Origin: Candidatus Saccharimonadota bacterium
GTDB lineage: Archaea > Nanohalarchaeota > Nanosalinia > Nanosalinales > Nanosalinaceae
Assembly (NCBI RefSeq): GCF_047555085.1
Contig: NZ_CP180230.1
Location: 180,001-212,000 of the forward strand
DNA length: 32,000 bases
Reading direction: 5' to 3'
The translations under genes and the position numbers were made by a program. The notes beneath the pieces were generated by a model. The model worked only from the letters and a program-made list of their open reading frames with translations, was not told where the DNA came from and ran no database searches. How positions within the stretch are numbered: the stretch's first letter is position 1; each line of letters starts with the position of its first letter. Below, one piece after another: positions 2,266 to 31,816 of the stretch.

Positions 2266-3987
2266 TCAGGCCAGATAACTGGCCAGATCCTCTACATTGA
2301 CTCTTTCCTGTTCCGTCGAGTCACGATCCCGTACTGTAACTTTCCCATCGTCTTCCAGAGTCTCGTAATCTATAGTGACACAGAAAGGTGTTCCGACTTC
2401 GTCCTGCCTCCTGTAACGTTTTCCGATGTTTCCGGTATCGTCGTACTTGACAGCGAAGCCCTCACTTCTCAGTTTGTCCGCTACGTCACGTGCTTTCTCG
2501 CCGAGGCCTTCCTTGTCCATCAACGGGAAGACAGCGACTTCAGTAGGAGCTGCTTTCTCGCTCAATCGCAGGACGGTCCTCTCTTCGTCGTCTACTTCGT
2601 CTTCATCGTACGCATGGACAAGCAAAGTGTAGACTGTCCTGTCGACACCGAATGAAGGCTCTGCGACGTGAGGAACTACGTGTTCTCCTGTCTCAGTAAC
2701 TTCCTCAACTTTGAAGTTGCATTTCTCGACGGGAACGGAGTACGTCTCATCCTCGATCTCAACGAAGATCTTGTCGGCCTCAAAGGCCTCTGGCTCCTCC
2801 TCGGCGATTCTTTCCAGTTCCTGTTTTATTTCGCCTGCTTTATCGCCGAACTCCGGGCCGAGGAATCCCATGTCTGGATTGACAGTATTTTTCTCAACTG
2901 TCTTCGGCTCATCGTACTCCTTGAAGATCTGGAAGTCTTTCTCGTCTCCGGAGTGATCCCTGTGTTTCGTCAAGTCGTAGCATCCTCTGTAGGCGAATCC
3001 TGCGATCTCAAGCCAGTCCTCTTCACTTGATCCGACATCGGACTCTGCGTCCCAGCAATCAGTCGCGTAGTGAGCTCTTTCTCCTTCCTGGTGCTGTCTG
3101 AAGCGGAAACGATCCATGTCAACTCCGATCCTCTCGTACCATTTCTTGGCGATACCGAGATAGTAAGCCACCCAGTCAACTTCTACAATATTCTCCTCAA
3201 CGGCCTCTTCAACAGTCGCATAGATATATTCTCCGTCGTCTTTCTCCTGCTCGCTGACAGGATAAAGCTTCAACTCCACATCCTTCACTCTATCCAGATT
3301 CGGCTCATTTTCTTCAGGATCCACAAAGTGCTCAAGCTCGGCCTGAGTGAATTCACGAGTCCTGACAAGGCCTTTACGTGGACTTATCTCGTTCCTGTAC
3401 GCTTTTCCGATCTGAGTGATTCCGAAAGGTAACTGGCCTCTCATGTAATCCTTCAATCTTGGGAACTCGACGAATATTCCCTGAGCTGTTTCAGGCCTCA
3501 AGTATCCTGTCTGTCCTGAGCCAGGGCCTATACTTGTTTCGAACATCAAGTTGAAGTCCTCGACTTCCACATCTGAAAGATTCTCGCCACAGCTAGGACA
3601 GATAAGATCATGCTCCTTGATCAAGGCCTCTATCTGATCAGTATCGAATCCTTCCGCCTCCTCGATATCAGTGTTGCCCTCTACAAGATGATCAGCTCGC
3701 GTAGAAGTTCCACACTCCGGGCATTCAATTATCATGTCGTCGAAGCCGTCCAAGTGTCCTGAGGCCTCAAATACAGGCTCCGGCATAACTGTCGGGGCCT
3801 CTATCTCTCTGTGTCCCAGCGCCCGTGAAAATGTTTCTCTCCAGCTATTTTCGATTTTTCTCTTCAACTCGGCGCCTTCAGGTCCGTAAGTCTGGAAGCC
3901 GGAAACGCCGCCGTAGGCCTCACTGCTCTGGAAGAAAAATCCTCTTCTCTTCGACAGTTCGGCAACTTTCTCACTTAAATTCTTCAT
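2266..3987 (-). CDS. glyS: Glycyl-tRNA synthetase, archaeal/eukaryotic-type alpha2
   Basis: 573 aa. The N-terminus KRRGFFFQSSEAYGG.SGF..YGP.G and class II motifs (RPETAQG, FRNEISPR..L.R.REF.Q.E.E.F) are typical of archaeal GlyRS. Confidence 0.95.
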   Translation of the reverse strand: MKNLSEKVAELSKRRGFFFQSSEAYGGVSGFQTYGPEGAELKRKIENSWRETFSRALGHREIEAPTVMPEPVFEASGHLDGFDDMIIECPECGTSTRADHLVEGNTDIEEAEGFDTDQIEALIKEHDLICPSCGENLSDVEVEDFNLMFETSIGPGSGQTGYLRPETAQGIFVEFPRLKDYMRGQLPFGITQIGKAYRNEISPRKGLVRTREFTQAELEHFVDPEENEPNLDRVKDVELKLYPVSEQEKDDGEYIYATVEEAVEENIVEVDWVAYYLGIAKKWYERIGVDMDRFRFRQHQEGERAHYATDCWDAESDVGSSEEDWLEIAGFAYRGCYDLTKHRDHSGDEKDFQIFKEYDEPKTVEKNTVNPDMGFLGPEFGDKAGEIKQELERIAEEEPEAFEADKIFVEIEDETYSVPVEKCNFKVEEVTETGEHVVPHVAEPSFGVDRTVYTLLVHAYDEDEVDDEERTVLRLSEKAAPTEVAVFPLMDKEGLGEKARDVADKLRSEGFAVKYDDTGNIGKRYRRQDEVGTPFCVTIDYETLEDDGKVTVRDRDSTEQERVNVEDLASYLA

Positions 3988-4007
3988 AGAGAAACACCGT
4001 CACTGGA

Positions 4008-4018
4008 AATTTTTATAG
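4008..4018 (-). promoter_or_regulatory. TATA-like box for glyS (leaderless geometry)
   Basis: The minus strand reads CTATAAAAATTT, centred about 26 nt upstream of the glyS ATG (3987). Confidence 0.5.
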
Positions 4019-4045
4019 CAGAAACTCTAGAAGGTTTTAAAATCC

Positions 4046-4062
4046 GAAACTCACAGAGTTTC
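4046..4062. repeat. Perfect palindrome GAAACTC-ACA-GAGTTTC
   Basis: 7-bp arms with a 3-nt spacer, verified by reverse-complementing. It is the second of three roughly 25-26 nt units that each start with GAAACT (4021, 4046, 4072). Confidence 0.7.
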
Positions 4063-4071
4063 TGGTTGTAA

Positions 4072-4090
4072 GAAACTTCACAGAAGTTTC
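4072..4090. repeat. Perfect palindrome GAAACTTC-ACA-GAAGTTTC
   Basis: 8-bp arms with the same ACA spacer, 26 nt after the previous palindrome. A third hairpin, GAAGCA-TTCAT-TGCTTC, follows at 4095-4111. Confidence 0.7.
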
Positions 4091-4101
4091 GGGCGAAGCA
4101 T

Positions 4102-4173
4102 TCATTGCTTCTGTTTGACACAGGCTCGTGTTCGAACCTGCGTAAATCCAAAACGTCCACCCTTGGTTGACAT
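4102..4173 (-). other. Candidate micro-ORF a (23 aa): MSTKGGRFGFTQVRTRACVKQKQ
   Basis: The ATG is preceded by AGGAG with a 6-nt spacing, and a TATA-like box lies further upstream. GGT-GGA-CGT is read in frame as GGR. Three hairpins follow. No coding statistics are possible at this length. Confidence 0.25.
4153..4161 (-). repeat. GGTGGACGT core motif copy (extended GGGTGGACGTTTTGGA, 4147-4162)
   Basis: The plus strand reads TCCAAAACGTCCACCC. It lies in the glyS-pgk spacer and is oriented toward glyS. Confidence 0.8.
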
Positions 4174-4204
4174 AAAAAACTCCTCTAAAGGCCTCTTCGC
4201 CTCG

Positions 4205-4217
4205 AATTTTTTTATAG
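4205..4217. promoter_or_regulatory. Strong TATA-like element in the glyS-pgk spacer, orientation ambiguous
   Basis: AATTTTTTTATAG on plus, CTATAAAAAAATT on minus. It is 68 nt from the pgk ATG, which is too far for a leaderless pgk. It is about 38 nt upstream of the minus-strand micro-ORF ATG at 4173. Confidence 0.35.
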
Positions 4218-4284
4218 CTGTCCTCTGGAACTCAAAGAGTTAAAAACGACCACAGGTAATACATCGTAATATAGTGGTGCCGGG

Positions 4285-5448
4285 ATGAAAAGTATTGAAG
4301 ACGCTGATCTAGAGTCAACGAATGTGCTTCTGAGAACTGATCTGAATCTTCCTGTGGAGGACGGTGAACCGAGGAAGACTGTCAGATTCGAGAGATATCT
4401 TGAAACAATCGAGAAACTGAGCGGTGAGGGAGCACGTACTGTTGTGATGGCGCATCAGGGAAGGCCTGCGAGAAACGATTTCACCTCGCTGGAGAAACAT
4501 TCCGAGATGATTGCAGAGGAGCTAGGCCAGGAAGTGAACTTTGTACAGACTTTTTTCGGGCCTCAACTGGGAGATGCAGTGGCCTCGATGCAGGACGGCG
4601 ATGTAACAGTTCTTGAGAACATCCGTTTCCTGTCAGAGGAGCTTCAGAACGCTTCTCCGCAGAGGCATTCGCATGATTACTTCGTCCAGAATCTGGCACC
4701 GTACTTCGATTTATACGTCGATGATGCATTCTCCGCCGCACATCGTTCACATGCATCCATGGTAGGATTCACAGAACTCCTTGACTCGTACGCAGGACCT
4801 GTGATGCAGAAGGAGATGGAGAGCTGCAGCAAGGTCAGAAAAGAGTTCGAAAGCGGCGTACTCGTACTTGGAGGGGAGAAGCCTTCCGATATAATCGGAA
4901 TGATGGAACACATGATTGAAGAAGTGGAAAAAGTTCTTCTCGGCGGCATACCTGGCGAACTGGCTCTGAAGATCAGAGGCCTTGGATCCGGGAAGAAGAA
5001 CGACTGGATAGAGAAAAACAGCTTCGATGCCAGCGCCGACGAACTCGAGGCCCTGATGGACAGATACGGAGAAAAAATAATTTTCCCTGAAGATTTGAGA
5101 ACAGATAAAGGAGATTTTGACGCCGAAAAAGTTCCCGACGACGAGATGACATGGGATATAGGGGAGAGAACAGCGGAAAGATACGCTGAAATAATCAGAG
5201 AAGCCGATGCAGCTGTCATGAAAGGCCCTATGGGAGCCTTCGAGGATTATCCAGACGGCTCTGAGAAAATTGTGGAGGCCTTGGCGGATTCAGAAGGCTT
5301 CACTGTCCTTGGAGGAGGCCACACTTCTTCACTCGTCCAGAGATTCGGATACGGTATTGAAGATTTTTCACATGTCTCTATAGCAGGAGGAGCTTTCGTA
5401 CGCTACATGAGCGGGGAGAAACTGGCCGCAATTCAGGCACTCGAATGA
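4285..5448 (+). CDS. pgk: Phosphoglycerate kinase
   Basis: 387 aa. VLLRTDLNLPV, ENIRF and GGGHTS motifs match archaeal PGK over the full length. Confidence 0.93.
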   Translation: MKSIEDADLESTNVLLRTDLNLPVEDGEPRKTVRFERYLETIEKLSGEGARTVVMAHQGRPARNDFTSLEKHSEMIAEELGQEVNFVQTFFGPQLGDAVASMQDGDVTVLENIRFLSEELQNASPQRHSHDYFVQNLAPYFDLYVDDAFSAAHRSHASMVGFTELLDSYAGPVMQKEMESCSKVRKEFESGVLVLGGEKPSDIIGMMEHMIEEVEKVLLGGIPGELALKIRGLGSGKKNDWIEKNSFDASADELEALMDRYGEKIIFPEDLRTDKGDFDAEKVPDDEMTWDIGERTAERYAEIIREADAAVMKGPMGAFEDYPDGSEKIVEALADSEGFTVLGGGHTSSLVQRFGYGIEDFSHVSIAGGAFVRYMSGEKLAAIQALE

Positions 5449-5485
5449 TTGAAGGATTTTTGAAGTATAGGCCTAAATTTTTCCT

Positions 5486-6241
5486 ATGAAGATATACAAG
5501 AGAGGAGAAGGAGAGCCGGAGATAACAGTTGTCGGCTCCGTACACGGAGATGAACCAGCAGGAAGAGACGCTATAGAAAACTTTCTGGATGAAAACCACG
5601 AATTTCTGAGGCCTGTACAGTTCATCATAGCGAACGAAGAGGCCCTGGAAAAAGATGTCAGATTTCTGGATACCGACCTGAACAGGGTTTTTCCCGGCGA
5701 CTCTGAAAGCGAAAGCCATGAGGAACGTCTGGCTTCGGAAATCATGAGTGCTATAGAAGGCACAAAAGTTCTTGATCTGCATACCACTAGATCCTATCCC
5801 CAGCCGTTTGCAACATTCACGGATCTGAATGATACCACAAGACATATGCTGGCGGGATCAGGTGTCAAAAATGCCGTTCACTTTCCTGAACAGTCCGGAA
5901 CTCTTCACGAACAGGTCGATGGCATAGTAGTGGAGACAGGACATCAGGGAACACCGCAGGCCCGCAGAAACGCTGAAGGAGTCATCAAGAACTTCCTTGC
6001 AGCACAGGATGTACTGGATATCGACTTCGAGGAATCAGATCCGGTGATATTCCGGTACTACGAAACTGTCGAAGGCGACTGGCAGTTCCTGGCGGACAAC
6101 TTCAAGAAAGTCGAGAAAGGCGAAGTATTCGCTGAAAGAGACGGAGAAAAACTCGAGGCCTCTGAAAGCTTTTATCCCGTACTGATGTCCACAGACGGAT
6201 ACGAAGGCATGCTCGGATTCAAGGCCAGAAAGCTAGAGTAG
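5486..6241 (+). CDS. Succinylglutamate desuccinylase/aspartoacylase (AstE/AspA) family zinc hydrolase
   Basis: VVGSVHGDEPAG, DLNRVFPG and VLDLHTT are the metal-binding and signature segments of this M14-like family. Confidence 0.75.
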   Translation: MKIYKRGEGEPEITVVGSVHGDEPAGRDAIENFLDENHEFLRPVQFIIANEEALEKDVRFLDTDLNRVFPGDSESESHEERLASEIMSAIEGTKVLDLHTTRSYPQPFATFTDLNDTTRHMLAGSGVKNAVHFPEQSGTLHEQVDGIVVETGHQGTPQARRNAEGVIKNFLAAQDVLDIDFEESDPVIFRYYETVEGDWQFLADNFKKVEKGEVFAERDGEKLEASESFYPVLMSTDGYEGMLGFKARKLE

Positions 6242-6252
6242 AATGCGAAAAC

Positions 6253-6260
6253 GTTTAAAC
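6253..6260 (+). promoter_or_regulatory. TATA-like box upstream of micro-ORF b
   Basis: GTTTAAAC is centred 27 nt upstream of ATG 6283. Confidence 0.3.
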
Positions 6261-6282
6261 AGTTCAAGACAAAAAATCTGCT

Positions 6283-6324
6283 ATGGCTCAGAAAGGTGGA
6301 CGTGTTTGGAAGTTTTTCCGTTAA
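6283..6324 (+). other. Candidate micro-ORF b (13 aa): MAQKGGRVWKFFR
   Basis: The ATG is 27 nt after GTTTAAAC. GGT-GGA-CGT is read in frame as GGR. The ATG lies within the 5' arm of the 11-bp inverted repeat. Confidence 0.25.
6295..6311 (+). repeat. 17-nt exact direct repeat GGTGGACGTGTTTGGAA, copy 1
   Basis: Identical to 6535-6551. The core GGTGGACGT also occurs at 4153-4161 (-) and 31762-31770 (-). Confidence 0.85.
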
Positions 6325-6513
6325 TTCTATGAGCCATAGCTTTCTCCGCATATCTTCAGTGAAAAATTTCTCCTGGTAAACGTAATTTATTCGCTATTTC
6401 TGTATTTCAACGCCATTTTTTATCTGAAAAAAGCTTCAGCTATGCTCTATGCTATGTTAAAGGCCTCTGAAGGTTATTTAAGGTTTGATGCGTATTCTAT
6501 GTCTGTGGTTCAC

Positions 6514-6573
6514 ATGACAGAAGATTCTAATTCGGGTGGACGTGTTTGGAACTTTGCAGCTGAATCTGCATGA
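6514..6573 (+). other. Candidate micro-ORF c (19 aa): MTEDSNSGGRVWNFAAESA
   Basis: The ATG is about 35 nt after TTATTTAAGG. GGT-GGA-CGT is read in frame as GGR. It overlaps the annotated GNAT start in a different frame. Confidence 0.2.
6535..6551 (+). repeat. 17-nt exact direct repeat GGTGGACGTGTTTGGAA, copy 2 (overlaps the GNAT start region)
   Basis: Identical to 6295-6311 and 240 nt downstream of copy 1. Confidence 0.85.
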
Positions 6574-7222
6574 AAATCCAGAACTACTAGACGACGATTC
6601 TCTTGACAGACTTGTTGAAGTTGCTCAATCCGCATTTAACAAAGAAGGACAGCCTGAGAGGGAGGATGTTGTAGAACATATAGTTCCCTCAAGCACATTT
6701 ATCACTGCTGAGGCAGATGGAGATATAATAGGCTTCTCATCAACTGACAGAGTTGCTGATACTGCTTATGCAGTAGGCCTTGCTGTTCACAGCGATTACC
6801 AGAATCAGGGAATCGGTAAGCTGGCAAGAACGTATGGTGTGCTACAGGAGATGGGAGATGAAGATATTGTCTCTACCAGGACGCAGAATCCTGCTGTTCT
6901 TGGATATATGCAGGAGCTTTTCAATGCCTATCCGCGTCAAGATGAAAAAGCTCCGGAAAATGTTGGAGAGGCTCTCGAGAAGGTGGCGAGAGCTCTTGAT
7001 CCGGATGCAGATTTTGAGGATGGGGTTATGAAAGAGGCCTATCCTGAGGCGATGTACGATGAGATACCGGATCACAGGCTGAAGGAGTTCACTGATGAGC
7101 TGCTTGAATACGAGAACGGGGATGCTGTGATCGCTGCCGGAGAAGTCTCCAGGCAGGATGTAGAAGAGGCCTATGAAAGCATGGTCGATGATCGTTCGTA
7201 CGATGTCGAGGTGGTGAGGTAG
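6536..7222 (+). CDS. GNAT-family N-acetyltransferase (start codon uncertain: GTG 6536, GTG 6542 or TTG 6554)
   Basis: AVHSDYQNQGIGKLA matches the acetyl-CoA-binding Q/RxxGxG/A motif of GNAT enzymes. There is no in-frame ATG near the 5' end. Confidence 0.6.
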   Translation: MDVFGTLQLNLHENPELLDDDSLDRLVEVAQSAFNKEGQPEREDVVEHIVPSSTFITAEADGDIIGFSSTDRVADTAYAVGLAVHSDYQNQGIGKLARTYGVLQEMGDEDIVSTRTQNPAVLGYMQELFNAYPRQDEKAPENVGEALEKVARALDPDADFEDGVMKEAYPEAMYDEIPDHRLKEFTDELLEYENGDAVIAAGEVSRQDVEEAYESMVDDRSYDVEVVR

Positions 7223-7282
7223 GTTCATGAGAAAGATTCAAAACAGCTGTCAAGGAATTTCTTCAACAGGTGGAAAATTTTA

Positions 7283-8365
7283 ATGCCAGATATTGATCCG
7301 TGGGGCGACGTTGAGATAGGAGATTACAGCGACAAGATGGAAAAATTCGGTATAGATCCGATAAGTGATGTGGAGGATCGTCTCCCGGATAACCTTCTCG
7401 TTCGTAGAGGTATAATCTTCGGGCACAGAGGCCTGAAGGAGTTCCTGGATGCGAAAGAGGACGGCGAAGAGTTTGCGATGATGACAGGTATCATGCCGTC
7501 AGGAGTCTTCCATTTCGGCCACAAGACTGTCGTCGATCAGATCCTGATGTACCAGGAGATGGGAGCCGAGATAACAGTCACAGCAGCTGATATAGAGGCC
7601 TACAACACGAGAGATATGAGCCTTGAAAAGTCCCGGGAGCTTGTTATCGAGGAGTACCTGAAAAACTATGTTGCTCTGGGCCTTGACCTGGATAAAGTTG
7701 ATTTTTATTTCCAGAGTGAGGGAGGAAACGATTACCATCTGAAAAGCAAGCAGTTCGCGAAACATCTCACGCAGAACGAGGTGGAGGCGACTTACGGCAG
7801 CGCAGCGCCTGGAAAGATCACTTCGGCGTTGACACAGTACGCTGATATACTGAGGCCTCAGTTCGATTCCCCGAAGCCGACTGTCGTCCCTGTCGGCGTC
7901 GATCAGGATCCTCACATCCGTTTGACAAGAGAGGTCGCTCGAAAGTACCGTGATGCGGATTTCTACAAGCCTTCAAGTACATACAACAAGTTCATGAGAG
8001 GCCTCCAGGGCGGAAAAATGAGCAGCAGCGATCCGAAAAGCTACATCGCATTGACAGATGATATAAAGGATGCTAAAAAGAAGATCGATCAGGCGAAGAC
8101 CGGAGGACGCGACACACTGGAGGAACACAGGGAGAAAGGTGCGAAAATCGAGGAAGATATGGTATTCGAGCTTCTGGCCTTCCACCTGATTGAAGACGAC
8201 GATGAACTCGCAAGGATCAAAAGAGAGTACTCCAGCGGTGAGATGCTGTCCGGAGAACTGAAACAGATAGCTAAGGATAGACTTGAGGAGTTCCTGACGG
8301 AGCACCAGAGGAAACGTGAAGAGGCCTCTGAAAAAGTCGAACAGTTCGTCCGCGAAAACACCTGA
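7283..8365 (+). CDS. trpS: Tryptophanyl-tRNA synthetase (archaeal type)
   Basis: Class I motifs: GIMPSGVFHFGH (HIGH-like) and KMSSS. The N-terminal DPWG segment and a length of 360 aa are typical of archaeal TrpRS. Confidence 0.85.
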   Translation: MPDIDPWGDVEIGDYSDKMEKFGIDPISDVEDRLPDNLLVRRGIIFGHRGLKEFLDAKEDGEEFAMMTGIMPSGVFHFGHKTVVDQILMYQEMGAEITVTAADIEAYNTRDMSLEKSRELVIEEYLKNYVALGLDLDKVDFYFQSEGGNDYHLKSKQFAKHLTQNEVEATYGSAAPGKITSALTQYADILRPQFDSPKPTVVPVGVDQDPHIRLTREVARKYRDADFYKPSSTYNKFMRGLQGGKMSSSDPKSYIALTDDIKDAKKKIDQAKTGGRDTLEEHREKGAKIEEDMVFELLAFHLIEDDDELARIKREYSSGEMLSGELKQIAKDRLEEFLTEHQRKREEASEKVEQFVRENT

Positions 8366-8400: not shown

Positions 8401-9096
8401 ATGTTGCAGGAGCTTTTCCTCCTTGAAGAGGAGCGGCGAAGTCCCGGCATGCTTTTTGTCCTGGGAGCAGTAGCAGTTTTCACAGGCTTTATAGCAGCTT
8501 CAACGTTTTTCCCTTCAAGGATAGCCTTCGTATCGGTCATCTTTGCTGCTGTACCCCTGATTTTCTCGCTTACACAGGAGTTCATGGATGATGAACAGGA
8601 AGGCCTCCCGCATATACCGGAGCTGAAGATGTATTTCTCGATCTTTGCAGGACAGGCCTCGGCCTTTTTCCTGATCTCGCTTTTCACAGAGGCCTCTTTC
8701 ACAGCTCAGAGGACTGTTCTAGGTCTTTCAGGTGCAGCAGCTTCGAACGCAGGCCTTGAAACAATTTTACTGAACAATCTGGGTGTTTTCGCTGCGGCGC
8801 TTTTCCTGGCACTTGTGATAGGTTCTGCAGGAGCCTTTGTACTTACATGGAATGCTTCAGTCCTTGGCATCTTCCTGGCTGAAGTTTTCAGCACTGATCC
8901 GTTCCTGGCACTGGCCTATGTTCCGCATGCATCGCTTGAGATGCTTGGATTCATCACTGCAGGAGTCGCAGGGACTCTGATCTCCGCAGCAGTCTACAGG
9001 AAGCATTTTGACAGGGATACATGGATCGACTACGTGAAACTTGTCGCTCTAGGCCTCGTGTTGATACTTGTAGCAGCTGTCGTGGAGACGGCTTAA
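8401..9096 (+). CDS. Integral membrane protein, SpoIIM/DUF95-like
   Basis: Several predicted TM helices. NNLGVFAAALFLALVIG and YVPHASLEMLGFITAGVAG resemble the conserved N..l and PHG..E segments of the stage II sporulation protein M family. Confidence 0.55.
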   Translation: MLQELFLLEEERRSPGMLFVLGAVAVFTGFIAASTFFPSRIAFVSVIFAAVPLIFSLTQEFMDDEQEGLPHIPELKMYFSIFAGQASAFFLISLFTEASFTAQRTVLGLSGAAASNAGLETILLNNLGVFAAALFLALVIGSAGAFVLTWNASVLGIFLAEVFSTDPFLALAYVPHASLEMLGFITAGVAGTLISAAVYRKHFDRDTWIDYVKLVALGLVLILVAAVVETA

Positions 9097-9097
9097 G

Positions 9098-9106
9098 TAT
9101 AAAATA
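9098..9106 (+). promoter_or_regulatory. TATA box for pheS-pheT
   Basis: TATAAAATA is centred 27 nt upstream of GTG 9129. Confidence 0.5.
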
Positions 9107-9128
9107 TTTGATCGCGTCAACTTTCTGC

Positions 9129-12991: not shown

Positions 12992-13450
12992 CTATTTTGA
13001 AGCGTTGAGATGTCTGAAAGTGGTCTTGTCGCACTCCAGAAGCTCCACGTTCTCGTTTTCAAGCCATTCGCTGCCTGTCATGTTGTCGTAAGAGGCCTCG
13101 GATGTCCAGTCCATACCTGTAACTTCTTCTGATTCACAGATATTGTAGGCCTGAAGCATAAGCTCTGATTCGACAAGCCTGTAGTAGTTTTCTGTACCTG
13201 GCTCAGGATCAGTATAGTTATCGTAATTGTACGTGGTGTGGTCTCTCATCTGGAGGCCTATACATGTTCCCGCCTCGATTCCGAAGCAGTTTGTCTCGAT
13301 CTCTGTCAGTCCGACGTTCATCGGCTCATCCGGTGTAGTGAAATTATTTACTCCGACAAAAACTAGTACTACTGCAAGTGAGATAGCTACGAAGAAGAGA
13401 TCTCTTTCGAGGCCTTCCTCAAATCTTTCCGGCAGGCTTGGCAACTCCAT
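12992..13450 (-). CDS. Small membrane-anchored, Cys-containing extracytoplasmic protein (paralog of 26946-27341)
   Basis: One N-terminal TM helix (LFFVAISLAVVLVFVGV), then an acidic domain with 4 Cys. Shares the C.GI....CIGLQ block with the ORF at 26946-27341. A TATA-like GATTTAAGAAG lies about 24 nt upstream. Confidence 0.55.
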   Translation of the reverse strand: MELPSLPERFEEGLERDLFFVAISLAVVLVFVGVNNFTTPDEPMNVGLTEIETNCFGIEAGTCIGLQMRDHTTYNYDNYTDPEPGTENYYRLVESELMLQAYNICESEEVTGMDWTSEASYDNMTGSEWLENENVELLECDKTTFRHLNASK

Positions 13451-13565
13451 ACATTTGACTCAAGTTGTTCAGCTTCTTAAATCCCCCTGTCCACAGGCCT
13501 CTCGATTTTTTGATTTCTACTCGAGAATCAATTACAAAAAGGCTCCGTCGTCAACTATTAGACAG

Positions 13566-15434
13566 ATGCAACTAGGAACTATTGAGGGAAAAGTAAATAC
13601 TGACAGTTTCAAGTTCAGAGCAACTGAAGAAGTAGGAAAATTCGATTTCGTATCTGTAAAAAGTAATGAAAAATGGATTCTGGCACAGGTGGATGAAGTC
13701 ACCAAGAAATCCGGTGGCGAGACCATCGCCGATGCCAACATCATCGGTTACAGAGACAAAGGTATGACTCGTGCTCCCCGCCAGGTTATCGAGCCGGACT
13801 CAATAGTTTACTCTGCAGATCAGGACCTGATCTCTGAGACTTTAGGCCTCAACGATGACGGTCTGAGAGTAGGTAATCTCGAGACAAATCCTGATATAGA
13901 TATTTTTGTTAATCCAGAGGATTTCTACAAGCACTTTGCAGTTCTGGCCCAGACAGGTGCTGGTAAATCTTATCTTACAGGTGTGTTAATGGAGGAAATG
14001 CTTGAACAGGACTTTCCTATACTGATAATCGATCCTCACGGAGAGTTTTCTTCCCTGGGAACTCCTAATCCGGATAATGAAGAAGAGCCGAAGGGATACA
14101 ACGTCAAGGAGTACTCTCCGAACACGGATATCAACAAGTCGGCACTTCCGCTCGAATTTTCCTCGCTTAACTTCGAGAAAAAAGAGTTACAGACACTGAT
14201 ACCGGATTCATTAACTAACTCCCAGATGGGAGTTCTCTACAACGCCCTGAAACGCCTCAGAGACAAAGACGAGGACTATTCTCTGATCGATATTGAGGAT
14301 GCTGTACAGCAGGAAGACTCCACTGCGAAATGGAATCTGCTGAACTATCTGGAGCAGCTTGAGGAATCAGGCCTTTTCTCAGATAATCCTATCGATACTG
14401 AGGAACTGGTGGAGAAAGGCCGAGCAACTATAATCAACTTGAAGGCCGTAGAGCCGGATACAGCAGAGATGGCGGTGTACCTACTGGCGAAAAAACTTTT
14501 CGACCTGAGGAAGAAGGACAAAGTCCCGCCGTTCATGATGGTGTTCGAGGAGGCCCACAACTTCATCCCGGAGAAAGGATTCGGACAGGCTATCTCAAAT
14601 CCTATCATGAGAAAGATTGCATCTGAGGGAAGAAAGTTCGGCCTCGGTATCGGAGTGATCTCTCAGAGGCCTGCACGTATAGATAAGAACGTTCTTTCAC
14701 AGTGCAACACACAGTTTATTCTGAAGGTGACGAATCCTAACGATCTTAAGGCGATCTCAAAATCTTTCGAGGGAATTACTTCCGGTGTTGAAGGTATGAT
14801 AAAGTCGCTTCCGCCGGGTGTCTGTTTCGTTCTCGGGAATCAGTATCCTGTCATGACTGATGTCCGGCAGAGAAAATCCAAGCACGGTGGAGAGACTCAG
14901 ACAGCTGATACATACGAGGAGAAAGAGAGTATCCGTGTATTTGAGACGCGTAAAAGGATTTCCGAGGTAGAGAACATGTACGGTGAAAAATTCGATACCA
15001 CGTACTATCCGCTCTATCTTGTGGAAAACGATGAGAAAAGAGTTCTTGTCGATGGGATAGAGAATAAAGTCAAGGCCAAGAGGAGCAAGCCGAGCTCTGA
15101 AGAGAAGGATATCATGCACAAGATAAGACAGGGAGTAGGAAAAAGCGATATGGTGGAGGAATTAGGCCTCTCAATCGCAAAATTGAGCTCCAAGATCGAT
15201 AACTTGAGAGACAAGAATCTGGTCAAAGACGGAGAACTCGAGGTACGTGAATCAATACTTGATCTGGAGATAAAGGAAGAAGACGTCGTAAAGGAAGATC
15301 TGATGGATTACCAGGTCGATGAGGAAAAGGCCTCGAAGAGGTTGAAAAAATCAGAGATAAGCAAAGTTTACTATCCGTACTACTCTTCAGACAACGTTGT
15401 TTACGATCCTATACTTGAAGAGGAAATCGGATGA
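13566..15434 (+). CDS. HerA-like (DUF87/FtsK-HerA superfamily) ATPase with C-terminal extension containing a winged-helix-like module
   Basis: N-terminal HAS-barrel-like segment, Walker A GAGKSYLTG, DPHGEF and Walker B FMMVFEEAHNF. Start moved to ATG 13566 because the upstream part of the track ORF overlaps the divergent gene and is Ser-rich. Confidence 0.8.
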   Translation: MQLGTIEGKVNTDSFKFRATEEVGKFDFVSVKSNEKWILAQVDEVTKKSGGETIADANIIGYRDKGMTRAPRQVIEPDSIVYSADQDLISETLGLNDDGLRVGNLETNPDIDIFVNPEDFYKHFAVLAQTGAGKSYLTGVLMEEMLEQDFPILIIDPHGEFSSLGTPNPDNEEEPKGYNVKEYSPNTDINKSALPLEFSSLNFEKKELQTLIPDSLTNSQMGVLYNALKRLRDKDEDYSLIDIEDAVQQEDSTAKWNLLNYLEQLEESGLFSDNPIDTEELVEKGRATIINLKAVEPDTAEMAVYLLAKKLFDLRKKDKVPPFMMVFEEAHNFIPEKGFGQAISNPIMRKIASEGRKFGLGIGVISQRPARIDKNVLSQCNTQFILKVTNPNDLKAISKSFEGITSGVEGMIKSLPPGVCFVLGNQYPVMTDVRQRKSKHGGETQTADTYEEKESIRVFETRKRISEVENMYGEKFDTTYYPLYLVENDEKRVLVDGIENKVKAKRSKPSSEEKDIMHKIRQGVGKSDMVEELGLSIAKLSSKIDNLRDKNLVKDGELEVRESILDLEIKEEDVVKEDLMDYQVDEEKASKRLKKSEISKVYYPYYSSDNVVYDPILEEEIG

Positions 15435-15443
15435 TACTCGTGG

Positions 15444-15454
15444 TATTTTAAGAA
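15444..15454 (+). promoter_or_regulatory. TATA-like box for tRNA-Val
   Basis: TATTTTAAGAA is centred about 30 nt upstream of the tRNA 5' end (15479). Confidence 0.45.
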
Positions 15455-15478
15455 TTTACTTCCCACGGTTATCTACAG

Positions 15479-15552
15479 GGGTTCGTGGTCTAGTTGGTTA
15501 TGACGTCGCCCTTACAAGGCGAAGATCCCCAGTTCGAATCTGGGCGAACCCA
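15479..15552 (+). tRNA. tRNA-Val (anticodon UAC), no intron, CCA not encoded
   Basis: Hand-folded cloverleaf. The 7-bp acceptor stem is GGGTTCG/CGAACCC. The anticodon stem is TCGCC/GGCGA with loop CTTACAA. The T arm is CCCAG-TTCGAAT-CTGGG, with a 5-nt variable loop and discriminator A. A TATA-like box lies about 30 nt upstream and TTTT lies downstream. Confidence 0.95.
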
Positions 15553-15752
15553 TCTCCGGTTTTGAAGTCCTCATTTCCTGGAGGAAAAATATCTGCCTCT
15601 TAAACGCTATCAAGATAGAATAAGGTGATCAGAGGCCTTGAAAAAATCTACAGGCCTGAACATTTGTTGTCATCAATACGTATTAAAGGATTAAGTGTCG
15701 AATAGTTTGACTGTACGTCAAGAGGTTTGAAGATGTACGAGGTCTCGATTAA

Positions 15753-16100
15753 ATGAGTTCATACAAGCAGGCTATACTCCTGAGAGAGGATCTAAATATG
15801 TCAAAGGGCAAAATGATTGCACAGGCCTGCCATGCATCTTTGAAGGCGTACAAGAAGGCTGATGAAAAGAAAAGGAGTGAATGGGAGTCTTCAGGAGCGA
15901 AGAAAGTTACGCTTGAAGTTGATGAAGAAAGTTTGAGGCAGAAAAGGATGGATGCTGAGGCCTCTGGCTTAACAGTTGTTACTGTGAAGGATGCCGGTCA
16001 TACTGAAGTCGATCCTGGCACTGAAACGGCTATTGCGATCGGGCCGGATGAGGAGTCAAGAATCGACTCTGTCACTGGCGACTTGAAGCTGATAAAATAA
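15753..16100 (+). CDS. pth2: Peptidyl-tRNA hydrolase, archaeal Pth2 type
   Basis: 115 aa. KQAILLREDLNMSKGKMIAQACHAS and TVVTVKDAGHTEV..GT.TAIAIGP are characteristic of PTH2. Confidence 0.9.
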   Translation: MSSYKQAILLREDLNMSKGKMIAQACHASLKAYKKADEKKRSEWESSGAKKVTLEVDEESLRQKRMDAEASGLTVVTVKDAGHTEVDPGTETAIAIGPDEESRIDSVTGDLKLIK

Positions 16101-16135
16101 AAACGATTAATACACAAACAAGGTTACACGGTAGA

Positions 16136-17329
16136 ATGACAGAAGAAACTGAACAGGAACAGGACGAGTTTGCAGATCTGGATATGGCCAGTATGGACTG
16201 GGAGTACTACTCCGATACGTTTGGAATAGAAGGAGCTATCAAGGAACAGGTCGGAGACTTCATAGTCAAGGAACTTGCCCGTCATGATACCGGTGAAGGA
16301 GATCACGTCATAGTTCAGTTGAGGAAGCAGAACATGACTACTCTGGAAGCTATAGGAAAGCTTTCAAACATGCTCCATATCTCCAGAGACAGGATCGGAT
16401 ACGCTGGAAACAAGGACAAGAGAGCAGTCACGGAACAGTATATTTCAATTCAGGGAGTTTCTCCTGAAGATGTAAGACAGATATTCACTGATGAATTTGA
16501 TCTTGAAGTTATCGGCATGAACGGCCATATCGGCCTTGGAAATCTTGATGCTAACCGTTTTGAAATTGTAATTAGAGATCTTAATCTTCCTATTGAAGAT
16601 ATAAGGAACAGAACGTTGAAGATAGTTGATGAACTTGATGGAAAGTTCCCGAATTACTTTGGGGATCAGAGATTTGGCTCTGCAAGGCCTATAACTCACC
16701 AGGTAGGCCGTCATATTCTCAGAGGCGAGTTTGAGGAAGCGGTATGGACTTATATTGCCAAGCCGTATGATTCGGAGTACAAAAGCATAAGGAAGACACG
16801 TCAGAATCTCTGGGAATCCAGGGATCCCGAGGATGCGGCGGAAAAGTTCCCTGAAAGTTACAGATACGAGAAAACACTTCTTTATCACCTGACAAAGAAT
16901 CCTGGTGACTATAAGGGAGCTATAAAGCGCCTGCCTGAAGGCCTTCAGGAGCTTTTCATACATGCTTATCAGTCATGGATCTTCAATCGAGTACTTTCGA
17001 CTCTTCTGGAGGATGACTGGTACGATGAGAAGTATGAGATCCCTCTTGTTGGGTATAAGACTGACTTGAAGGACAACAGGCCTGAGAACTTGATCAAGGA
17101 GATTCTTGAGGAGGAAGGTGTCAGTCAGGAGGATTTCAGGCTTCAGGACTTCCCGGAGCTGCGCAGCGAGGGAACTTTCAGACGTGCTTTTGCTGATTTC
17201 CGGAACTTTGAGATTCTGGGGATCGATGAAGATGATCTGAACATGAATCAGAACAAGATGCGTGTGAAGTTCGATCTGCCGAAGGGATGTTATGCCACAG
17301 TTCTCCTCAGGGAAGTAATGAAGAACTAG
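16136..17329 (+). CDS. truD: tRNA pseudouridine synthase D (TruD/Pus7 family)
   Basis: GYAGNKDKRAVTEQ (catalytic Asp motif) and NYFGDQRFG match the TruD family. Confidence 0.9.
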   Translation: MTEETEQEQDEFADLDMASMDWEYYSDTFGIEGAIKEQVGDFIVKELARHDTGEGDHVIVQLRKQNMTTLEAIGKLSNMLHISRDRIGYAGNKDKRAVTEQYISIQGVSPEDVRQIFTDEFDLEVIGMNGHIGLGNLDANRFEIVIRDLNLPIEDIRNRTLKIVDELDGKFPNYFGDQRFGSARPITHQVGRHILRGEFEEAVWTYIAKPYDSEYKSIRKTRQNLWESRDPEDAAEKFPESYRYEKTLLYHLTKNPGDYKGAIKRLPEGLQELFIHAYQSWIFNRVLSTLLEDDWYDEKYEIPLVGYKTDLKDNRPENLIKEILEEEGVSQEDFRLQDFPELRSEGTFRRAFADFRNFEILGIDEDDLNMNQNKMRVKFDLPKGCYATVLLREVMKN

Positions 17330-17375
17330 AGGCCTGTAGCTTACTTCAAAGCTCTTTTTCCGTGTTCTTGTGTTG

Positions 17376-17386
17376 GATATATTAAG
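17376..17386 (+). promoter_or_regulatory. TATA-like box for the GT2 / GT-C / thioredoxin-like operon
   Basis: GATATATTAAG is centred about 31 nt upstream of ATG 17412. Confidence 0.4.
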
Positions 17387-17411
17387 TTTTGATTAGAAAC
17401 TTCTTCTTGTT

Positions 17412-29742: not shown

Positions 29743-31665
29743 TCAGCCCAGGAACTCTGGCTCCAGGCTCTTGTCCTCAACCTCCTGTCTCAAGGCCTCT
29801 CTGAACTCTTCCAGATCTACGTCACCTTCTTCACGCTCTTCTCTATCTCTGACGGAAATGTTCCCGGCCTCTTCCTCGTCATCTCCAAGAATAAGCATGT
29901 ATGGCACGTTGTCGTCGTGAGCGGCCTGAATCTTCTTCCCGACGGTCCAGGAACGATCCTCGATCTCCACTCTGAACTTTGAAAGTTCTTTCTGGATCTT
30001 TTCAGCATAGGCCTTGTTGTCATCCGTTACAGGAAGGATACGCACCTGTTCCGGTGCAAGCCATGTCGGGAAGTCTCCTGCAAAGTGTTCGATCATGACT
30101 CCCATGAAACGTTCGATAGATCCGAGGATCGCACGATGGATCATGACGGGGTAATGGTCCTCGTTGTCCTCTCCGACGTACTTCAGTCCGTAGTTACGCG
30201 GGATGACGAAATCGAGCTGGACTGTACCCAGCTGCCATTCTCTTCCGATCGCATCTTCCACCTCGACACCGATCTTAGGCCCGTAGAACGCTCCTTCTTC
30301 CTCGTTAATCACATAGTCATCTACTTTCTCATCTAACGCGTTCTTCAGGGAGCTTTCTGCTTCTTCCCATAATTCATCCGGTCCCTGAGCCTTCTCAGGC
30401 TTTGTCTCGAGTATAAAGTTGACATTAAATCCGAACTCATCGTACATCTCGATAATGATCTGGAGATGCTTCTTGATCTCCTCCTCGATCTGATCCTTAC
30501 GGATATAGGCGTGGCCATCGTCTTGGGTCATACCTCTAACGCGTAAAAGGCCTGAAAGCTCTCCACTCTGTTCATTCCTGTAAACTGTCCCGAACTCGGA
30601 AAGCTTGATAGGCAGCTCTTTGTAACTCCTTTTACCGGAGTCAAATATATGCGAATGGTTCGCACAGTTCATAGGCTTGAGGCCGTACTCTTCATCGTTT
30701 TGCTCCCAGGCAAACATCTCGCCTTCCTCCTTGAAGGCCTCGTAGTGCCCCGTTTTCTTCCATAGCTCTGCTTTATTCAGTTCTGGTGTCCAGACTTCCT
30801 CGTAGCCGAGTTCTTTATTCTTCTGGCGGATGTATTCCTCGAGCTCTCTTCTCATCTTCATCCCATCTCTGTGGAAATGTGCGGCACCTGGCGAGAAATC
30901 AGGGATCGAGAACAGTTCCATCTCCTGTCCGATCCTCCTGTGATCACGCTTTTCAGCCTCTCTGCGCTTCTCCATGAAATCTTCGAGATCTGCCTCGGAG
31001 GAGAAAGCTGTTCCATAAACTCTTGTAAGCATCTCGTTCTCCTCATCGCCTCTCCAGTAGGCGCCAGCGATCTCCAGAAGCTTGAAGGCCTCAACTTCCC
31101 CCGTAGATTCTACGTGAGGGCCTTTACATAAGTCCTTGAACTCTCCCTGCTTGTAAAAGGAAACTTTGTCTCCTTCAGAGGCCTCTTCATCCAGGATCTC
31201 TCGTTTATACTCGTTGTCCTCGAAGAAATCTTCAGCCTCTTCTCGTGGGACTAGTTCACGTTCTATCGGAAGATCTTCTTCGATTATATTCTGCATCTCT
31301 TCCTCGATTTCTTCGAAATCCTCCTGATCCAGATCGACTCCGTCGATATCGTAGTAGAATCCTTCATCAGTCCAAGGTCCGATCGTAAGCTTTACTTCGT
31401 CGCCGTAGATCCTCTTCAAGGCCTGTGCGAATACGTGTGCGGCGCTGTGGCGCAGGACTTCGATGTATTCTTCGCTCTGATCTGTTACTATGTGGACGGT
31501 ATCTCCGTCTGAGACATGTTCCTCTTTGGCTACGAGTTCGCCGTTGATCTTTCCGGCTACTGTATCGTCTCCAAGGCCTGTTCCTATCTCGTAGGCCACA
31601 TCTTCTACTGTCGAGTTTTCTTCTACTTCTAAACTGGAGCCATCTGGTAGTTCTACTTCAATCAT
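29743..31665 (-). CDS. thrS: Threonyl-tRNA synthetase (TGS, editing, class II core and anticodon-binding domains)
   Basis: 640 aa. N-terminal TGS domain, editing-domain HSAAHV motif, class II motifs (FRNE.SG.L.GL.RVR, GAFYGPKI) and a C-terminal anticodon-binding domain. Confidence 0.95.
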   Translation of the reverse strand: MIEVELPDGSSLEVEENSTVEDVAYEIGTGLGDDTVAGKINGELVAKEEHVSDGDTVHIVTDQSEEYIEVLRHSAAHVFAQALKRIYGDEVKLTIGPWTDEGFYYDIDGVDLDQEDFEEIEEEMQNIIEEDLPIERELVPREEAEDFFEDNEYKREILDEEASEGDKVSFYKQGEFKDLCKGPHVESTGEVEAFKLLEIAGAYWRGDEENEMLTRVYGTAFSSEADLEDFMEKRREAEKRDHRRIGQEMELFSIPDFSPGAAHFHRDGMKMRRELEEYIRQKNKELGYEEVWTPELNKAELWKKTGHYEAFKEEGEMFAWEQNDEEYGLKPMNCANHSHIFDSGKRSYKELPIKLSEFGTVYRNEQSGELSGLLRVRGMTQDDGHAYIRKDQIEEEIKKHLQIIIEMYDEFGFNVNFILETKPEKAQGPDELWEEAESSLKNALDEKVDDYVINEEEGAFYGPKIGVEVEDAIGREWQLGTVQLDFVIPRNYGLKYVGEDNEDHYPVMIHRAILGSIERFMGVMIEHFAGDFPTWLAPEQVRILPVTDDNKAYAEKIQKELSKFRVEIEDRSWTVGKKIQAAHDDNVPYMLILGDDEEEAGNISVRDREEREEGDVDLEEFREALRQEVEDKSLEPEFLG

Positions 31666-31719
31666 GAGAGATCTCCTGCAAAGTTTCTAATTTGATAGAA
31701 AAGATTTTGACAGCTAAAG

Positions 31720-31776
31720 TTAAAGCTGGCTTGGTTGCGAGACATGCGGTCGTGGAGTAGGACGTCCACCTTTCAT
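31720..31776 (-). other. Candidate micro-ORF d (18 aa): MKGGRPTPRPHVSQPSQL
   Basis: It lies upstream of thrS in the same orientation, 54 nt from stop to the thrS ATG. GGT-GGA-CGT is read in frame as GGR. Confidence 0.2.
31762..31770 (-). repeat. GGTGGACGT core motif copy
   Basis: The plus strand reads ACGTCCACC. It lies in the thrS-aTrm56 spacer and is oriented toward thrS. Confidence 0.8.
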
Positions 31777-31802
31777 TGCATCAAAAGTTGAGGCCTCTGC
31801 TC

Positions 31803-31816
31803 TTAATAATTTATGC
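31803..31816. promoter_or_regulatory. Shared AT-rich TATA-like block between aTrm56 (+) and the thrS-upstream micro-ORF (-)
   Basis: TTAATAATTTATGC lies about 22-25 nt upstream of ATG 31832 (+) and about 34 nt upstream of ATG 31776 (-). Confidence 0.35.

Follow-up and report, generated by a model that had tools for sequence, protein, structure and literature searches.

A synthetase-matched codon in a conserved leader cassette of nanohaloarchaeal genomes, and a putative +1 frameshift sensor of tRNA charging

What is the function of the 9-mer GGTGGACGT, which recurs near aminoacyl-tRNA synthetase genes in a 32,000-nucleotide (nt) stretch of Candidatus Saccharimonadota bacterium (assembly GCF_047555085.1, contig NZ_CP180230.1, positions 180,001 to 212,000)? 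This stretch is referred to here as the window. A preliminary description of the window had reported four copies of the 9-mer where about 0.25 would be expected. The four copies (A to D) were found again, but the expectation on both strands is lower, at 0.10, and none of 100 shuffled sequences reached four. A fifth copy is not present in the window. All four lie within long spacers of 294, 297 and 165 nt, and the earlier statement that the motif is restricted to spacers held, since in about 250 kb of related DNA it was found in no other intergenic site than these. Comparison with relatives revealed three features that had escaped the preliminary description. The hexamer GGTGGA contains a Shine-Dalgarno (SD) core, a codon matching the neighbouring synthetase stands 6 nt past the hexamer, and the +1 frame continues beyond it. 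Together with an upstream ATG, these parts form a cassette. We have high confidence that the cassette, the match between codon and synthetase, the leader open reading frames (ORFs) coupled to synthetase genes and a small ORF (sORF-A) are real conserved features. We propose that the cassette acts as a prfB-like programmed +1 frameshift site triggered by a 'hungry' cognate codon, a reading for which the chances appear evenly balanced.

The comparison covered the window and 13 related genomes (14 genomes in total) and yielded 30 instances of the cassette. Proteins encoded in the window are acidic, and their homologues bear nanohaloarchaeal names. The gene order GlyRS / PGK, AstE-like gene, long spacer, GNAT acetyltransferase gene, TrpRS is preserved in eight more genomes, in which GNAT identity ranges from 38% to 79%; the AstE-like gene is absent from two of them (L006 and L013). 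In the relatives the long spacer measures 262-363 nt and likewise carries both copy A and copy B. ThrRS loci were taken from five additional genomes. Scans with a GNAT profile gave two loci in a genome collection and four in a metagenome collection. Besides GlyRS, ThrRS, TrpRS and PheRS alpha/beta, no synthetase gene was found in the window.

All 30 instances have the same order of parts: an ATG with one to seven codons, GGTGGA, a 3-nt spacer, a shift-prone codon and a sense codon, here called Z. The distance from the ATG to the hexamer is nearly fixed for each type of copy (12 nt in A, 12 nt in C, 21 nt in B and 6 nt in D). The divergent genome L014 has shorter distances (A 9, C 6 and B 18 nt), so that the copy B ATG lies 21 nt before the hexamer in the eight other genomes. 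The only variant of the hexamer is GGTGAA, which occurs in two GlyRS leaders and is still SD-like. The 3-nt spacer varies (CGT, TAT, TGT, TGC, CGC or CAT). The shift-prone codon, written with the next base, is TTT-T, CTT-T, GTT-T, TTT-G, TTT-A, CCC-A or CCT-A; re-pairing in the +1 frame is good for UUU-U, CUU-U and CCC-A and poor for GUU-U and CCU-A. At all four copies of the window the upstream ATG is in the frame GGT GGA CGT, as had been described. The two ATG-started micro-ORFs reported for copies A and B exist, and such ORFs are conserved, with an ATG that keeps both its frame and its distance from the motif in up to nine genomes per copy type. The 17-mer GGTGGACGTGTTTGGAA is indeed present exactly at 6295-6311 and 6535-6551. 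This identity is a feature of the present genome only, and in relatives copies A and B share just GGTGGA-N4-TTTGGA.

The codon Z encodes the amino acid of the adjacent synthetase in 30 out of 30 cassettes. It is TGG (Trp) in all 16 copies of types A and B, which belong to sORF-A and to the GNAT gene beside TrpRS. In all nine GlyRS leaders it is GGA (Gly), and the five ThrRS leaders have ACT or ACC (Thr). A single base separates the A and B copies (CGT-G-TTTGG) from copy C (CGT-TTTGG), and due to this difference the Trp codon becomes a Gly codon. In the ThrRS leaders the Thr codon varies at its third base only, while its flanks change (CCT, TTT or CCC before it; CCA, TTC, GAA or CTG after it). 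The invariant AC of this codon spans a codon boundary of the GTG frame, and therefore it is the frame of the ATG that is read or selected there. Three cognate matches at one fixed position would arise by chance with a probability of about 4e-5, or below about 1e-3 when the choice of position is allowed for; both values are post hoc estimates from typical amino-acid frequencies, not those of this genome.

Next to Z, the two reading frames through the hexamer differ in their fate. The zero frame, read from the ATG, stops after 9-38 codons and has an unconserved tail. The +1 frame, starting with the GTG inside the hexamer, is open in every instance, and the chance of an open +1 frame in shuffled leaders is 0.03-0.29 per sequence. 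As in a prfB-type site, the short zero frame thus stands against a productive +1 frame, which is the GNAT gene, sORF-A or an ORF that leads to the synthetase ATG. In the GlyRS and ThrRS leaders the length differences between genomes in the +1 frame are multiples of three in all but one case. In this frame codon 2 is always Asp (GAC or GAT, synonymous), and V, A, I and M are the only residues found at codon 3. None of the 30 instances has an ATG in place of the GTG, which would be odd for a mere start codon.

The SD core of the clade was defined by enrichment upstream of gene starts. AGGTG is enriched 16-fold at -20 to -4 of 125 gene starts, giving (G)AGGTG as the SD of this clade. The hexamer GGTGGA itself serves as SD of TrpRS (Table 1) and of the gene at 26078-26404, where the spacer is 6 nt. 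At real starts GGTG lies 8-13 nt before the start codon, versus 5 nt before the P-site codon in all 30 cassettes. The internal SD-like element is consequently closer to the shift codon than start spacing would have it, in the manner of prfB.

Transcript starts were predicted from the upstream boxes. The leaderless spacing that had been pointed out at copy A was seen again, with TTTAAA 28-30 nt ahead of the ATG in seven genomes; for L001 the ATG in question is the second one in frame. Copy C has a conserved AGAGGA 4-12 nt before the ATG and downstream of a TATA box. Copies B and D have AT-rich boxes 32-40 nt upstream, from which a 5' untranslated region (UTR) of at most about 10 nt is predicted. 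For copy B, TTTTTAAG-type boxes are located 34-40 nt before the ATG in nine genomes. From these positions, the cassette ATG is predicted to be the natural start closest to the 5' end.

The GlyRS leader cassette is conserved in nine genomes, with a +1 frame that is open for 36-58 codons. In seven of these nine its TGA overlaps the GlyRS ATG, and the distances from GTG to ATG (173, 122, 119, 170, 122, 116 and 107 nt) are all 2 mod 3. In L006 and L013 the +1 frame stops about 10 nt beyond the ATG. All nine GlyRS leaders have a hairpin that starts 0-5 nt past the Gly codon and has a different sequence in each genome. Compensatory changes were found in eight of its nine pairs, which none of 500 shuffles matched. 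The ThrRS leader cassette was found in five of six genomes. In all five the +1 ORF reaches the ThrRS ATG, after 35, 35, 34, 60 and 33 codons, with an ATGA overlap in four; in L017 a TAA is directly followed by the ATG. Such overlapping or abutting stop and start codons are expected of a translationally coupled ORF pair.

Several further features were seen in these leaders. The element TTTTTATAGC occurs twice in the divergent GlyRS/PGK spacer (4011-4020 and 4209-4218), and on the minus strand the two copies are the proximal TATA of GlyRS and the TATA of cassette C. The window (4035-4085, minus strand) and L005 share an insertion of 51 nt in their GlyRS leaders, which leaves the +1 leader ORF in frame. 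The insertion consists of two tandem hairpins, GAAACTTC-tgt-GAAGTTTC and GAAACTC-tgt-GAGTTTC. The motif of copy D is part of a palindrome, GGACGTCC (31756-31770, minus strand). Its GTGGA can pair with TCCAC 8 nt downstream, which is also the case in L017 and not in L016, L020 and L021.

In the spacer between the AstE-like gene and GNAT, which measures 294 nt from the AstE-like stop (6241) to GTG 6536 as described, copies A and B each open a coding frame. Copy A is conserved as AAAGGTGGA-N4-TTTGGA. In the relatives of cassette A, ATGG, AAAGGTGGA and TTTGG are invariant, the spacer is CGT, TAT, TGT or TGC, and the variable codon of the zero frame is R, Y or C. Copy A had been taken as non-coding. 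This has to be revised, as its +1 frame opens a conserved ORF of 27 amino acids, sORF-A. The start region of sORF-A reads GTG GAY [V/M/A/I] TTT GG, and the ORF has 25-61 codons across nine genomes. Its C-terminus is conserved (S-F-L-x-I-S-S-V-K-N-F-S-W), and its indels are in frame in the nine genomes, including a 45-nt insertion in L005. In the alignable block the pN/pS ratio (non-synonymous to synonymous differences) is 0.32, versus 0.99 and 0.82 in the other two frames. The conserved ORF, the in-frame indels and this ratio indicate that the spacer holds an unannotated small protein gene; the gene calls of the related contigs do not include sORF-A. The sORF-A homologue of L006 and L013, MFDFNKKTDFSETLHSISSKIRFNWPN, has an ordinary ATG start without a cassette. 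The GNAT gene and the GlyRS leader keep their cassettes in these two genomes, with GGTGAA as the GlyRS hexamer.

The perfect 11-bp inverted repeat around copy A (6280-6290 and 6330-6340) is present as reported. The hairpin it was thought to form is not supported by covariation over six genomes, in which pairing is seen in 64% of cells and is equalled by 39 of 500 shuffles. The T-run between sORF-A and the GNAT promoter is possibly an archaeal terminator or a point of attenuation. For copy B, it had been noted that the motif overlaps possible GNAT starts. The overlap is correct, and GTG GAC GTG TTT GGA is at the same time the N-terminus M-D-V-F-G of the family. The annotated N-terminus of GNAT is MD[VA]FG, in which F4 and G5 are invariant down to 42% identity. 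The GTG within GGTGGA is the sole conserved candidate start and is GTG, never ATG, in nine of nine genomes. The idea of translational interplay at the GNAT start, put forward earlier, pointed in the right direction. The +1 frame of cassette B is the GNAT gene.

The spacer between GNAT and TrpRS is occupied in the window by an 18-codon ORF, MRKIQNSCQGISSTGGKF (7227-7283), whose TAA overlaps the TrpRS ATG (TAATG). The SD of TrpRS, GGTGGA, reads Gly-Gly in this ORF. As a relay coupling GNAT to TrpRS the ORF was rejected, because it is limited to the window and absent in relatives. The coordinates of all features are listed in Table 1.

Table 1. Features of the window that belong to the cassettes and to the genes downstream of them.
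Feature	Position	Strand	Details
GGTGGACGT, copy A	6295-6303	+	spacer upstream of GNAT gene
GGTGGACGT, copy B	6535-6543	+	5' end of GNAT gene
GGTGGACGT, copy C	4153-4161	-	GlyRS leader
GGTGGACGT, copy D	31762-31770	-	ThrRS leader
TATA-like box GTTTAAAC, cassette A	6254..6261	+	28-30 nt before ATG, leaderless geometry; conserved in alignment
Cassette A, zero frame	6283..6324	+	micro-ORF MAQKGGRVWKFFR; ATG GCT CAG AAA; GGTGGA 6295-6300; CGT 6301-6303; GTT (then T) 6304-6306; TGG (Trp, Z) 6307-6309; TAA 6322-6324
sORF-A, +1 ORF of cassette A	6296..6379	+	27 codons from GTG 6296; C-terminus SFLRISSVKNFSW
11-bp inverted repeat	6280..6340	+	perfect in the window genome only; 3' arm codes for sORF-A (M-S-H-S)
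T-run, CCATTTTTTATC region	6416..6425	+	between sORF-A and GNAT promoter; matching T-run in 4 genomes
TATA-like box TTATTTAA, cassette B	6474..6481	+	predicts 5' UTR of about 10 nt before ATG 6514
Cassette B, zero frame	6514..6573	+	micro-ORF MTEDSNSGGRVWNFAAESA; ATG and 6 codons; GGTGGA 6535-6540; CGT 6541-6543; GTT (then T) 6544-6546; TGG (Trp, Z) 6547-6549; TGA 6571-6573
GNAT acetyltransferase gene	6536..7222	+	+1 frame of cassette B; Pfam PF00583, PF13508; downstream of copies A and B
GGTGGA as true SD of TrpRS	7269..7285	+	8-nt spacer, then TrpRS ATG
TrpRS gene	7283-8365	+	follows GNAT; followed by SpoIIM-like gene, then PheRS alpha/beta
Cassette C, GlyRS leader	4102..4216	-	TATA 4216-4207; SD AGAGGAG 4186-4180; ATG 4173-4171; GGTGGA 4161-4156; CGT 4155-4153; TTT (then G) 4152-4150; GGA (Gly, Z) 4149-4147; covarying hairpin 4142-4119; zero-frame TGA 4104-4102
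+1 ORF of cassette C	3984..4160	-	58 codons; TGA overlaps GlyRS ATG (ATGA)
GlyRS gene	2266-3987	-	downstream of copy C
Cassette D, ThrRS leader	31720..31814	-	AT-rich box 31814-31803; ATG 31776-31774; GGTGGA 31770-31765; CGT 31764-31762; CCT (then A) 31761-31759; ACT (Thr, Z) 31758-31756; zero-frame TAA 31722-31720
+1 ORF of cassette D	31662..31769	-	35 codons; TGA overlaps ThrRS ATG (ATGA)
ThrRS gene	29743-31665	-	downstream of copy D

Taking these features together, we propose the following mode of action. The 9-mer, consisting of the SD-like hexamer and the 3-nt spacer, would be the core of a sensor for one charged tRNA. Ribosomes would initiate at the 5'-proximal ATG. At copy A this ATG would open a leaderless transcript, at copy C an SD would serve it, and at copies B and D it would follow a very short 5' UTR. 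After a few codons the anti-SD of 16S rRNA would pair with GGUGG of the mRNA, 5 nt ahead of the codon in the P site. At this moment the P site would hold the shift-prone codon (NUU-U, UUU-G/A or CCY-A) and the A site the Trp, Gly or Thr codon. When the cognate aminoacyl-tRNA is scarce, the ribosome would wait, slip by +1 and continue in the GTG GAC frame. At copy B the +1 product would be the GNAT protein beside TrpRS, with the predicted trans-frame peptide MTEDSNSGGRV-GTLQLN..., that is, MTEDSNSGGRV followed by GTLQLNLHENPE.... At copy A it would be the conserved small protein, with sORF-A entered from the zero frame at 6304-6307 and MAQKGGRV-GSFSVNSM... as the predicted peptide. At GlyRS and ThrRS the shifted ribosome would travel along the leader to the ATGA, terminate there and reinitiate, so that more synthetase would be made when its product is limiting. 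The cassette would then be a modular +1 codon sensor that can be reprogrammed and that feeds the charging of one tRNA back to the matching synthetase through a coupled leader ORF. We hold this wider claim to be possible and put it slightly short of an even chance. The +1 shift model accounts for the ATG, for the invariance of GGTGGA (including that the GTG is never ATG), for the spacing, the pyrimidine-rich codon, Z, the open +1 frames and the extra base between the Trp and Gly copies. Stimulatory structures are known to affect the efficiency of frameshifting, as in prfB and antizyme. Such structures sit 5-9 nt after the slippery site (PMC8211752), and the GlyRS hairpin lies approximately in this position.

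A number of observations weigh against the frameshift model. The P-site codons are heterogeneous, and two of them (GUU-U and CCU-A) re-pair poorly. Read from the GTG, the frame also gives a coherent N-terminus, M-D-[V/A/I/M]-[F/L/P], with synonymous GAC and GAT. The hairpin that might stimulate shifting is present at the GlyRS leader only, and no comparable structure was found after Z at copies A, B and D. GlyRS of the window has its own proximal TATA of the leaderless type, and therefore control by the cassette could be partial only. The ThrRS gene of Nanosalina J07AB43 has no cassette. The synthetases covered are of three types, namely TrpRS through its neighbourhood, GlyRS and ThrRS. The putative link between the Trp cassettes and TrpRS is one of conserved neighbourhood only. 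In relatives the GNAT stop is followed by a T-run, and the spacer up to TrpRS also contains a conserved block, GGAAAGATTCAAAACAGCT, so that TrpRS may have its own promoter.

The main rival explanation does without recoding. Here the hexamer's GTG is an ordinary start codon for four ORFs sharing M-D-V-[F/L], namely GNAT, sORF-A and the two leader ORFs coupled by ATGA to GlyRS and ThrRS, and the ATG micro-ORFs are overlapping, probably inhibitory upstream ORFs (uORFs). The conserved N-terminus of the GNAT family, the constant Asp at codon 2 and the restricted codon 3 fit such a start. The open +1 frames and the ATGA overlaps are explained as well, and the database protein of this genome begins at the in-frame TTG 6554 (222 aa) with no frameshift called. 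However, the GTG lies 7-22 nt into the transcript with the ATG as 5'-proximal start, it lacks an SD of its own, and it never appears as ATG. Initiation at the GTG also leaves unexplained why a synthetase-matched Trp, Gly or Thr codon stands 6 nt past the hexamer, and why AC of the Thr codon is invariant over a codon boundary of the GTG frame at which L and P interchange freely. In addition, a ribosome stalled on the uORF would cover the GTG. Synthetase output would therefore fall during a shortage, which is the wrong direction for homeostasis. We consider this explanation unlikely.

Z could alternatively report on tRNA charging without any shift. A ribosome pausing at Z in the leader peptide would remodel the downstream RNA or transcription in the manner of attenuation or of ermC, for instance by melting the hairpin after the Gly codon, and the +1 frame would be open by coincidence. 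In favour of this reading, the cognate codon has a constant position within a short 5' ORF, the covarying GlyRS hairpin lies inside the footprint of a paused ribosome, and a T-run follows sORF-A. Moreover, E. coli pheST is under leader-peptide control. The +1 frames open over 33-60 codons, the indels in multiples of three, the ATGA overlaps and the coding signature of sORF-A in the +1 frame are left unexplained, as is the need for an SD-like hexamer at a distance of exactly 3 nt from the P codon. The cognate codon is single and not part of a run, no alternative terminator/antiterminator pairing was found, and copies A, B and D have no hairpin after Z. Stalling without a shift thus appears rather improbable.

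An operator or a protein-binding RNA site, in which a transcription factor or an RNA-binding protein recognises GGTGGACGT and so co-regulates promoters linked to synthetases, would agree with the over-representation of the motif, its confinement to spacers and its position just downstream of the predicted promoters of GlyRS, ThrRS and the TrpRS neighbourhood. The motif is strand-specific, though, and always in phase with the upstream ATG; the triplet that follows GGTGGA varies, a palindrome is seen in copy D only, by chance, and Z, the open +1 frame and the in-frame indels are conserved although they are irrelevant to a binding site. Nothing points to the operator for winged helix-turn-helix proteins that had been suggested, and we rate a binding site of either kind as very improbable. 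A family of functional 'GGR' micropeptides encoded by the ATG micro-ORFs is hardly credible: the ATG, the frame and G-G at fixed positions are conserved, and the ThrRS-leader peptide MKGG[RH]..HVSQPSQL is kept in three close genomes with synonymous changes, but GG can be followed by R, Y, C or H, the tails vary between genomes in length (9-38 codons) as well as in sequence, and GGT GGA shows no synonymous variation in 30 instances, which places the constraint at the nucleotide and not at the peptide level; a GGR peptide is not the conserved unit.

We then compared the proposed +1 frameshift sensor with known systems. The site in prfB consists of an SD-like element, a 3-nt spacer, CUU-U and a slowly decoded A-site codon (PMC10798248, PMC5009743). 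The cassette resembles it in the internal SD-like element, the 3-nt spacer and the productive +1 frame. It would also share an NUU-N codon prone to shifting from the P site, and an A-site codon whose decoding rate reports on the regulated factor. In contrast to prfB, where the slow codon is a stop, it is a sense codon here (Trp, Gly or Thr), and the host is an archaeon. At two of the four loci the +1 frame is not the regulated protein but a connector ORF ending on the synthetase ATG. Furthermore, one cassette would be reused here with different sensor codons, and the frameshift at the present site is putative.

The cassette shares with the pheST/pheM, trpL and thrL leaders a short 5' ORF with cognate codons whose translation speed would report on tRNA charging. 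Those systems use runs of cognate codons and terminator/antiterminator hairpins, whereas the cassette has one codon at a fixed distance from the hexamer and a +1 frame that is conserved as open, and no terminator switch can be recognised in it. Like a T-box riboswitch it is a cis element in synthetase leaders with a triplet that gives specificity for the cognate tRNA. The resemblance of AAGGGUGGAC to the T-box sequence AGGGUGGNACCGCG is superficial. Unlike a T-box, the cassette has no Rfam match and is proposed to be read by the ribosome, with no tRNA binding the leader directly. Since the motif stands at the transcript's 5' end, Stem I and a specifier loop are missing upstream of it. An ATGA overlap is typical of translationally coupled gene pairs. 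Coupling of this kind in haloarchaea is similar to the overlap of the +1 leader TGA with the GlyRS or ThrRS ATG, but here the place of the upstream protein-coding gene is taken by a leader ORF of 33-60 codons, which is not conserved and would be entered at the cassette. In hungry-codon shifting, Ty1 and antizyme, slow decoding in the A site likewise promotes a +1 shift, and in antizyme and prfB the shift serves as a feedback sensor. Recoding reviews, by contrast, list no case in which an aminoacyl-tRNA is sensed to control its own synthetase.

To our knowledge, archaea have no T-boxes and no described attenuators that would match synthetase levels to demand. For archaea the recoding reviews mention a suggested Mg-chelatase frameshift and a suggested +1 event in a haloarchaeal virus, and no case linked to a synthetase. 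One programmed frameshift has been demonstrated in cellular archaeal genes (fucA1, -1), and none is regulatory (PMC8211752, PMC5009743). Our literature search found no prior description of the cassette, and the regulatory mode proposed here appears not to have been described before. If correct, it would be the first case of a programmed +1 frameshift with a regulatory role in cellular genes of archaea, and would correspond in function to the T-box and to prfB autoregulation in bacteria. The sensor would be compact and portable, with its specificity set by a single codon. It would predict what precedes other synthetase genes, and could be tested by a reporter in Haloferax. The GNAT start would be reannotated in nine genomes as an ATG followed by a frameshift instead of a GTG, and a conserved, unannotated small protein gene would be added. 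The match between codon and synthetase and the coupled leader ORFs stand as new comparative findings whether or not the frameshift proves wrong.

Known RNA families and a number of other readings were also checked. With Rfam at the gathering threshold, a tRNA-Val was the only match in the whole window, and ARAGORN found this tRNA-Val as the sole tRNA gene. In the spacers (3900-6700) a search at E<=10 returned only noise and no match to the T-box (RF00230). Split tRNA, tRNA fragment and C/D-box readings were ruled out on inspection of the sequence. A recent 240-bp insertion with a flanking 17-bp duplication was rejected because relatives have the same long spacer with both copies. The mutually exclusive terminator and antiterminator structures of a transcription attenuator were not found; there is one conserved hairpin, in the GlyRS leader, with no T-run after it, and no consistent structure at copies A, B and D. 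A prfB-like frameshift at the zero-frame stop of copy D (CTT TAA C) has no equivalent at copies A or C and is absent in L020 and L021. Slippage at AAA-G before the hexamer is not universal, as TCG-G, AAT-G and ACT-G occur too. Coding on the opposite strand was excluded, since the minus-strand frames differ at A, C and D and no long ORF covers any copy. A scan of a viral collection for CAATGAAAGGTGGAYRY gave 58 matches, none of which fits the cassette and none of which has a +1 frame ending on a gene start. Two of these matches were checked and lie on the opposite strand of a 128-aa phage gene (..YPPFIVNKCLS..), whose family covers most of the matches.

Further observations concern other parts of the window. 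The palindrome AGGCCT occurs 133 times in the 32 kb, about 20 times the expectation, and is found in every coding phase and in spacers. It is over-represented 13- to 26-fold in some nanohaloarchaeal genomes, including Nanohalovita haloferacivicina and SG9, and at or below expectation elsewhere, including the close relative Nanohalobium constans (one copy in 22 kb). This comparison set the window, L001, L003, L005, L008, L014, L016 and L020 against L017, L018, L021, L006, L013 and L007. The patchy distribution suggests some lineage-specific process acting on DNA. In L005, a gene for a HerA/DUF87-type ATPase (15383-18802, 1139 aa) contains an intein with a LAGLIDADG endonuclease; without it, the product has 621 aa in both L001 and L003, and in the window its length is about 620-735 aa. 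The longest HerA-like ORF of the window (TTG 13227) overlaps a minus-strand gene (12992-13450) and is probably over-extended, in the region 13227-13568, with orthologues about 110 residues shorter. The longest PheRS alpha ORF (start 9021, with a 76-nt overlap with the SpoIIM-like gene) is probably over-extended in the region 9021-9126, and its orthologues are 35 residues shorter.

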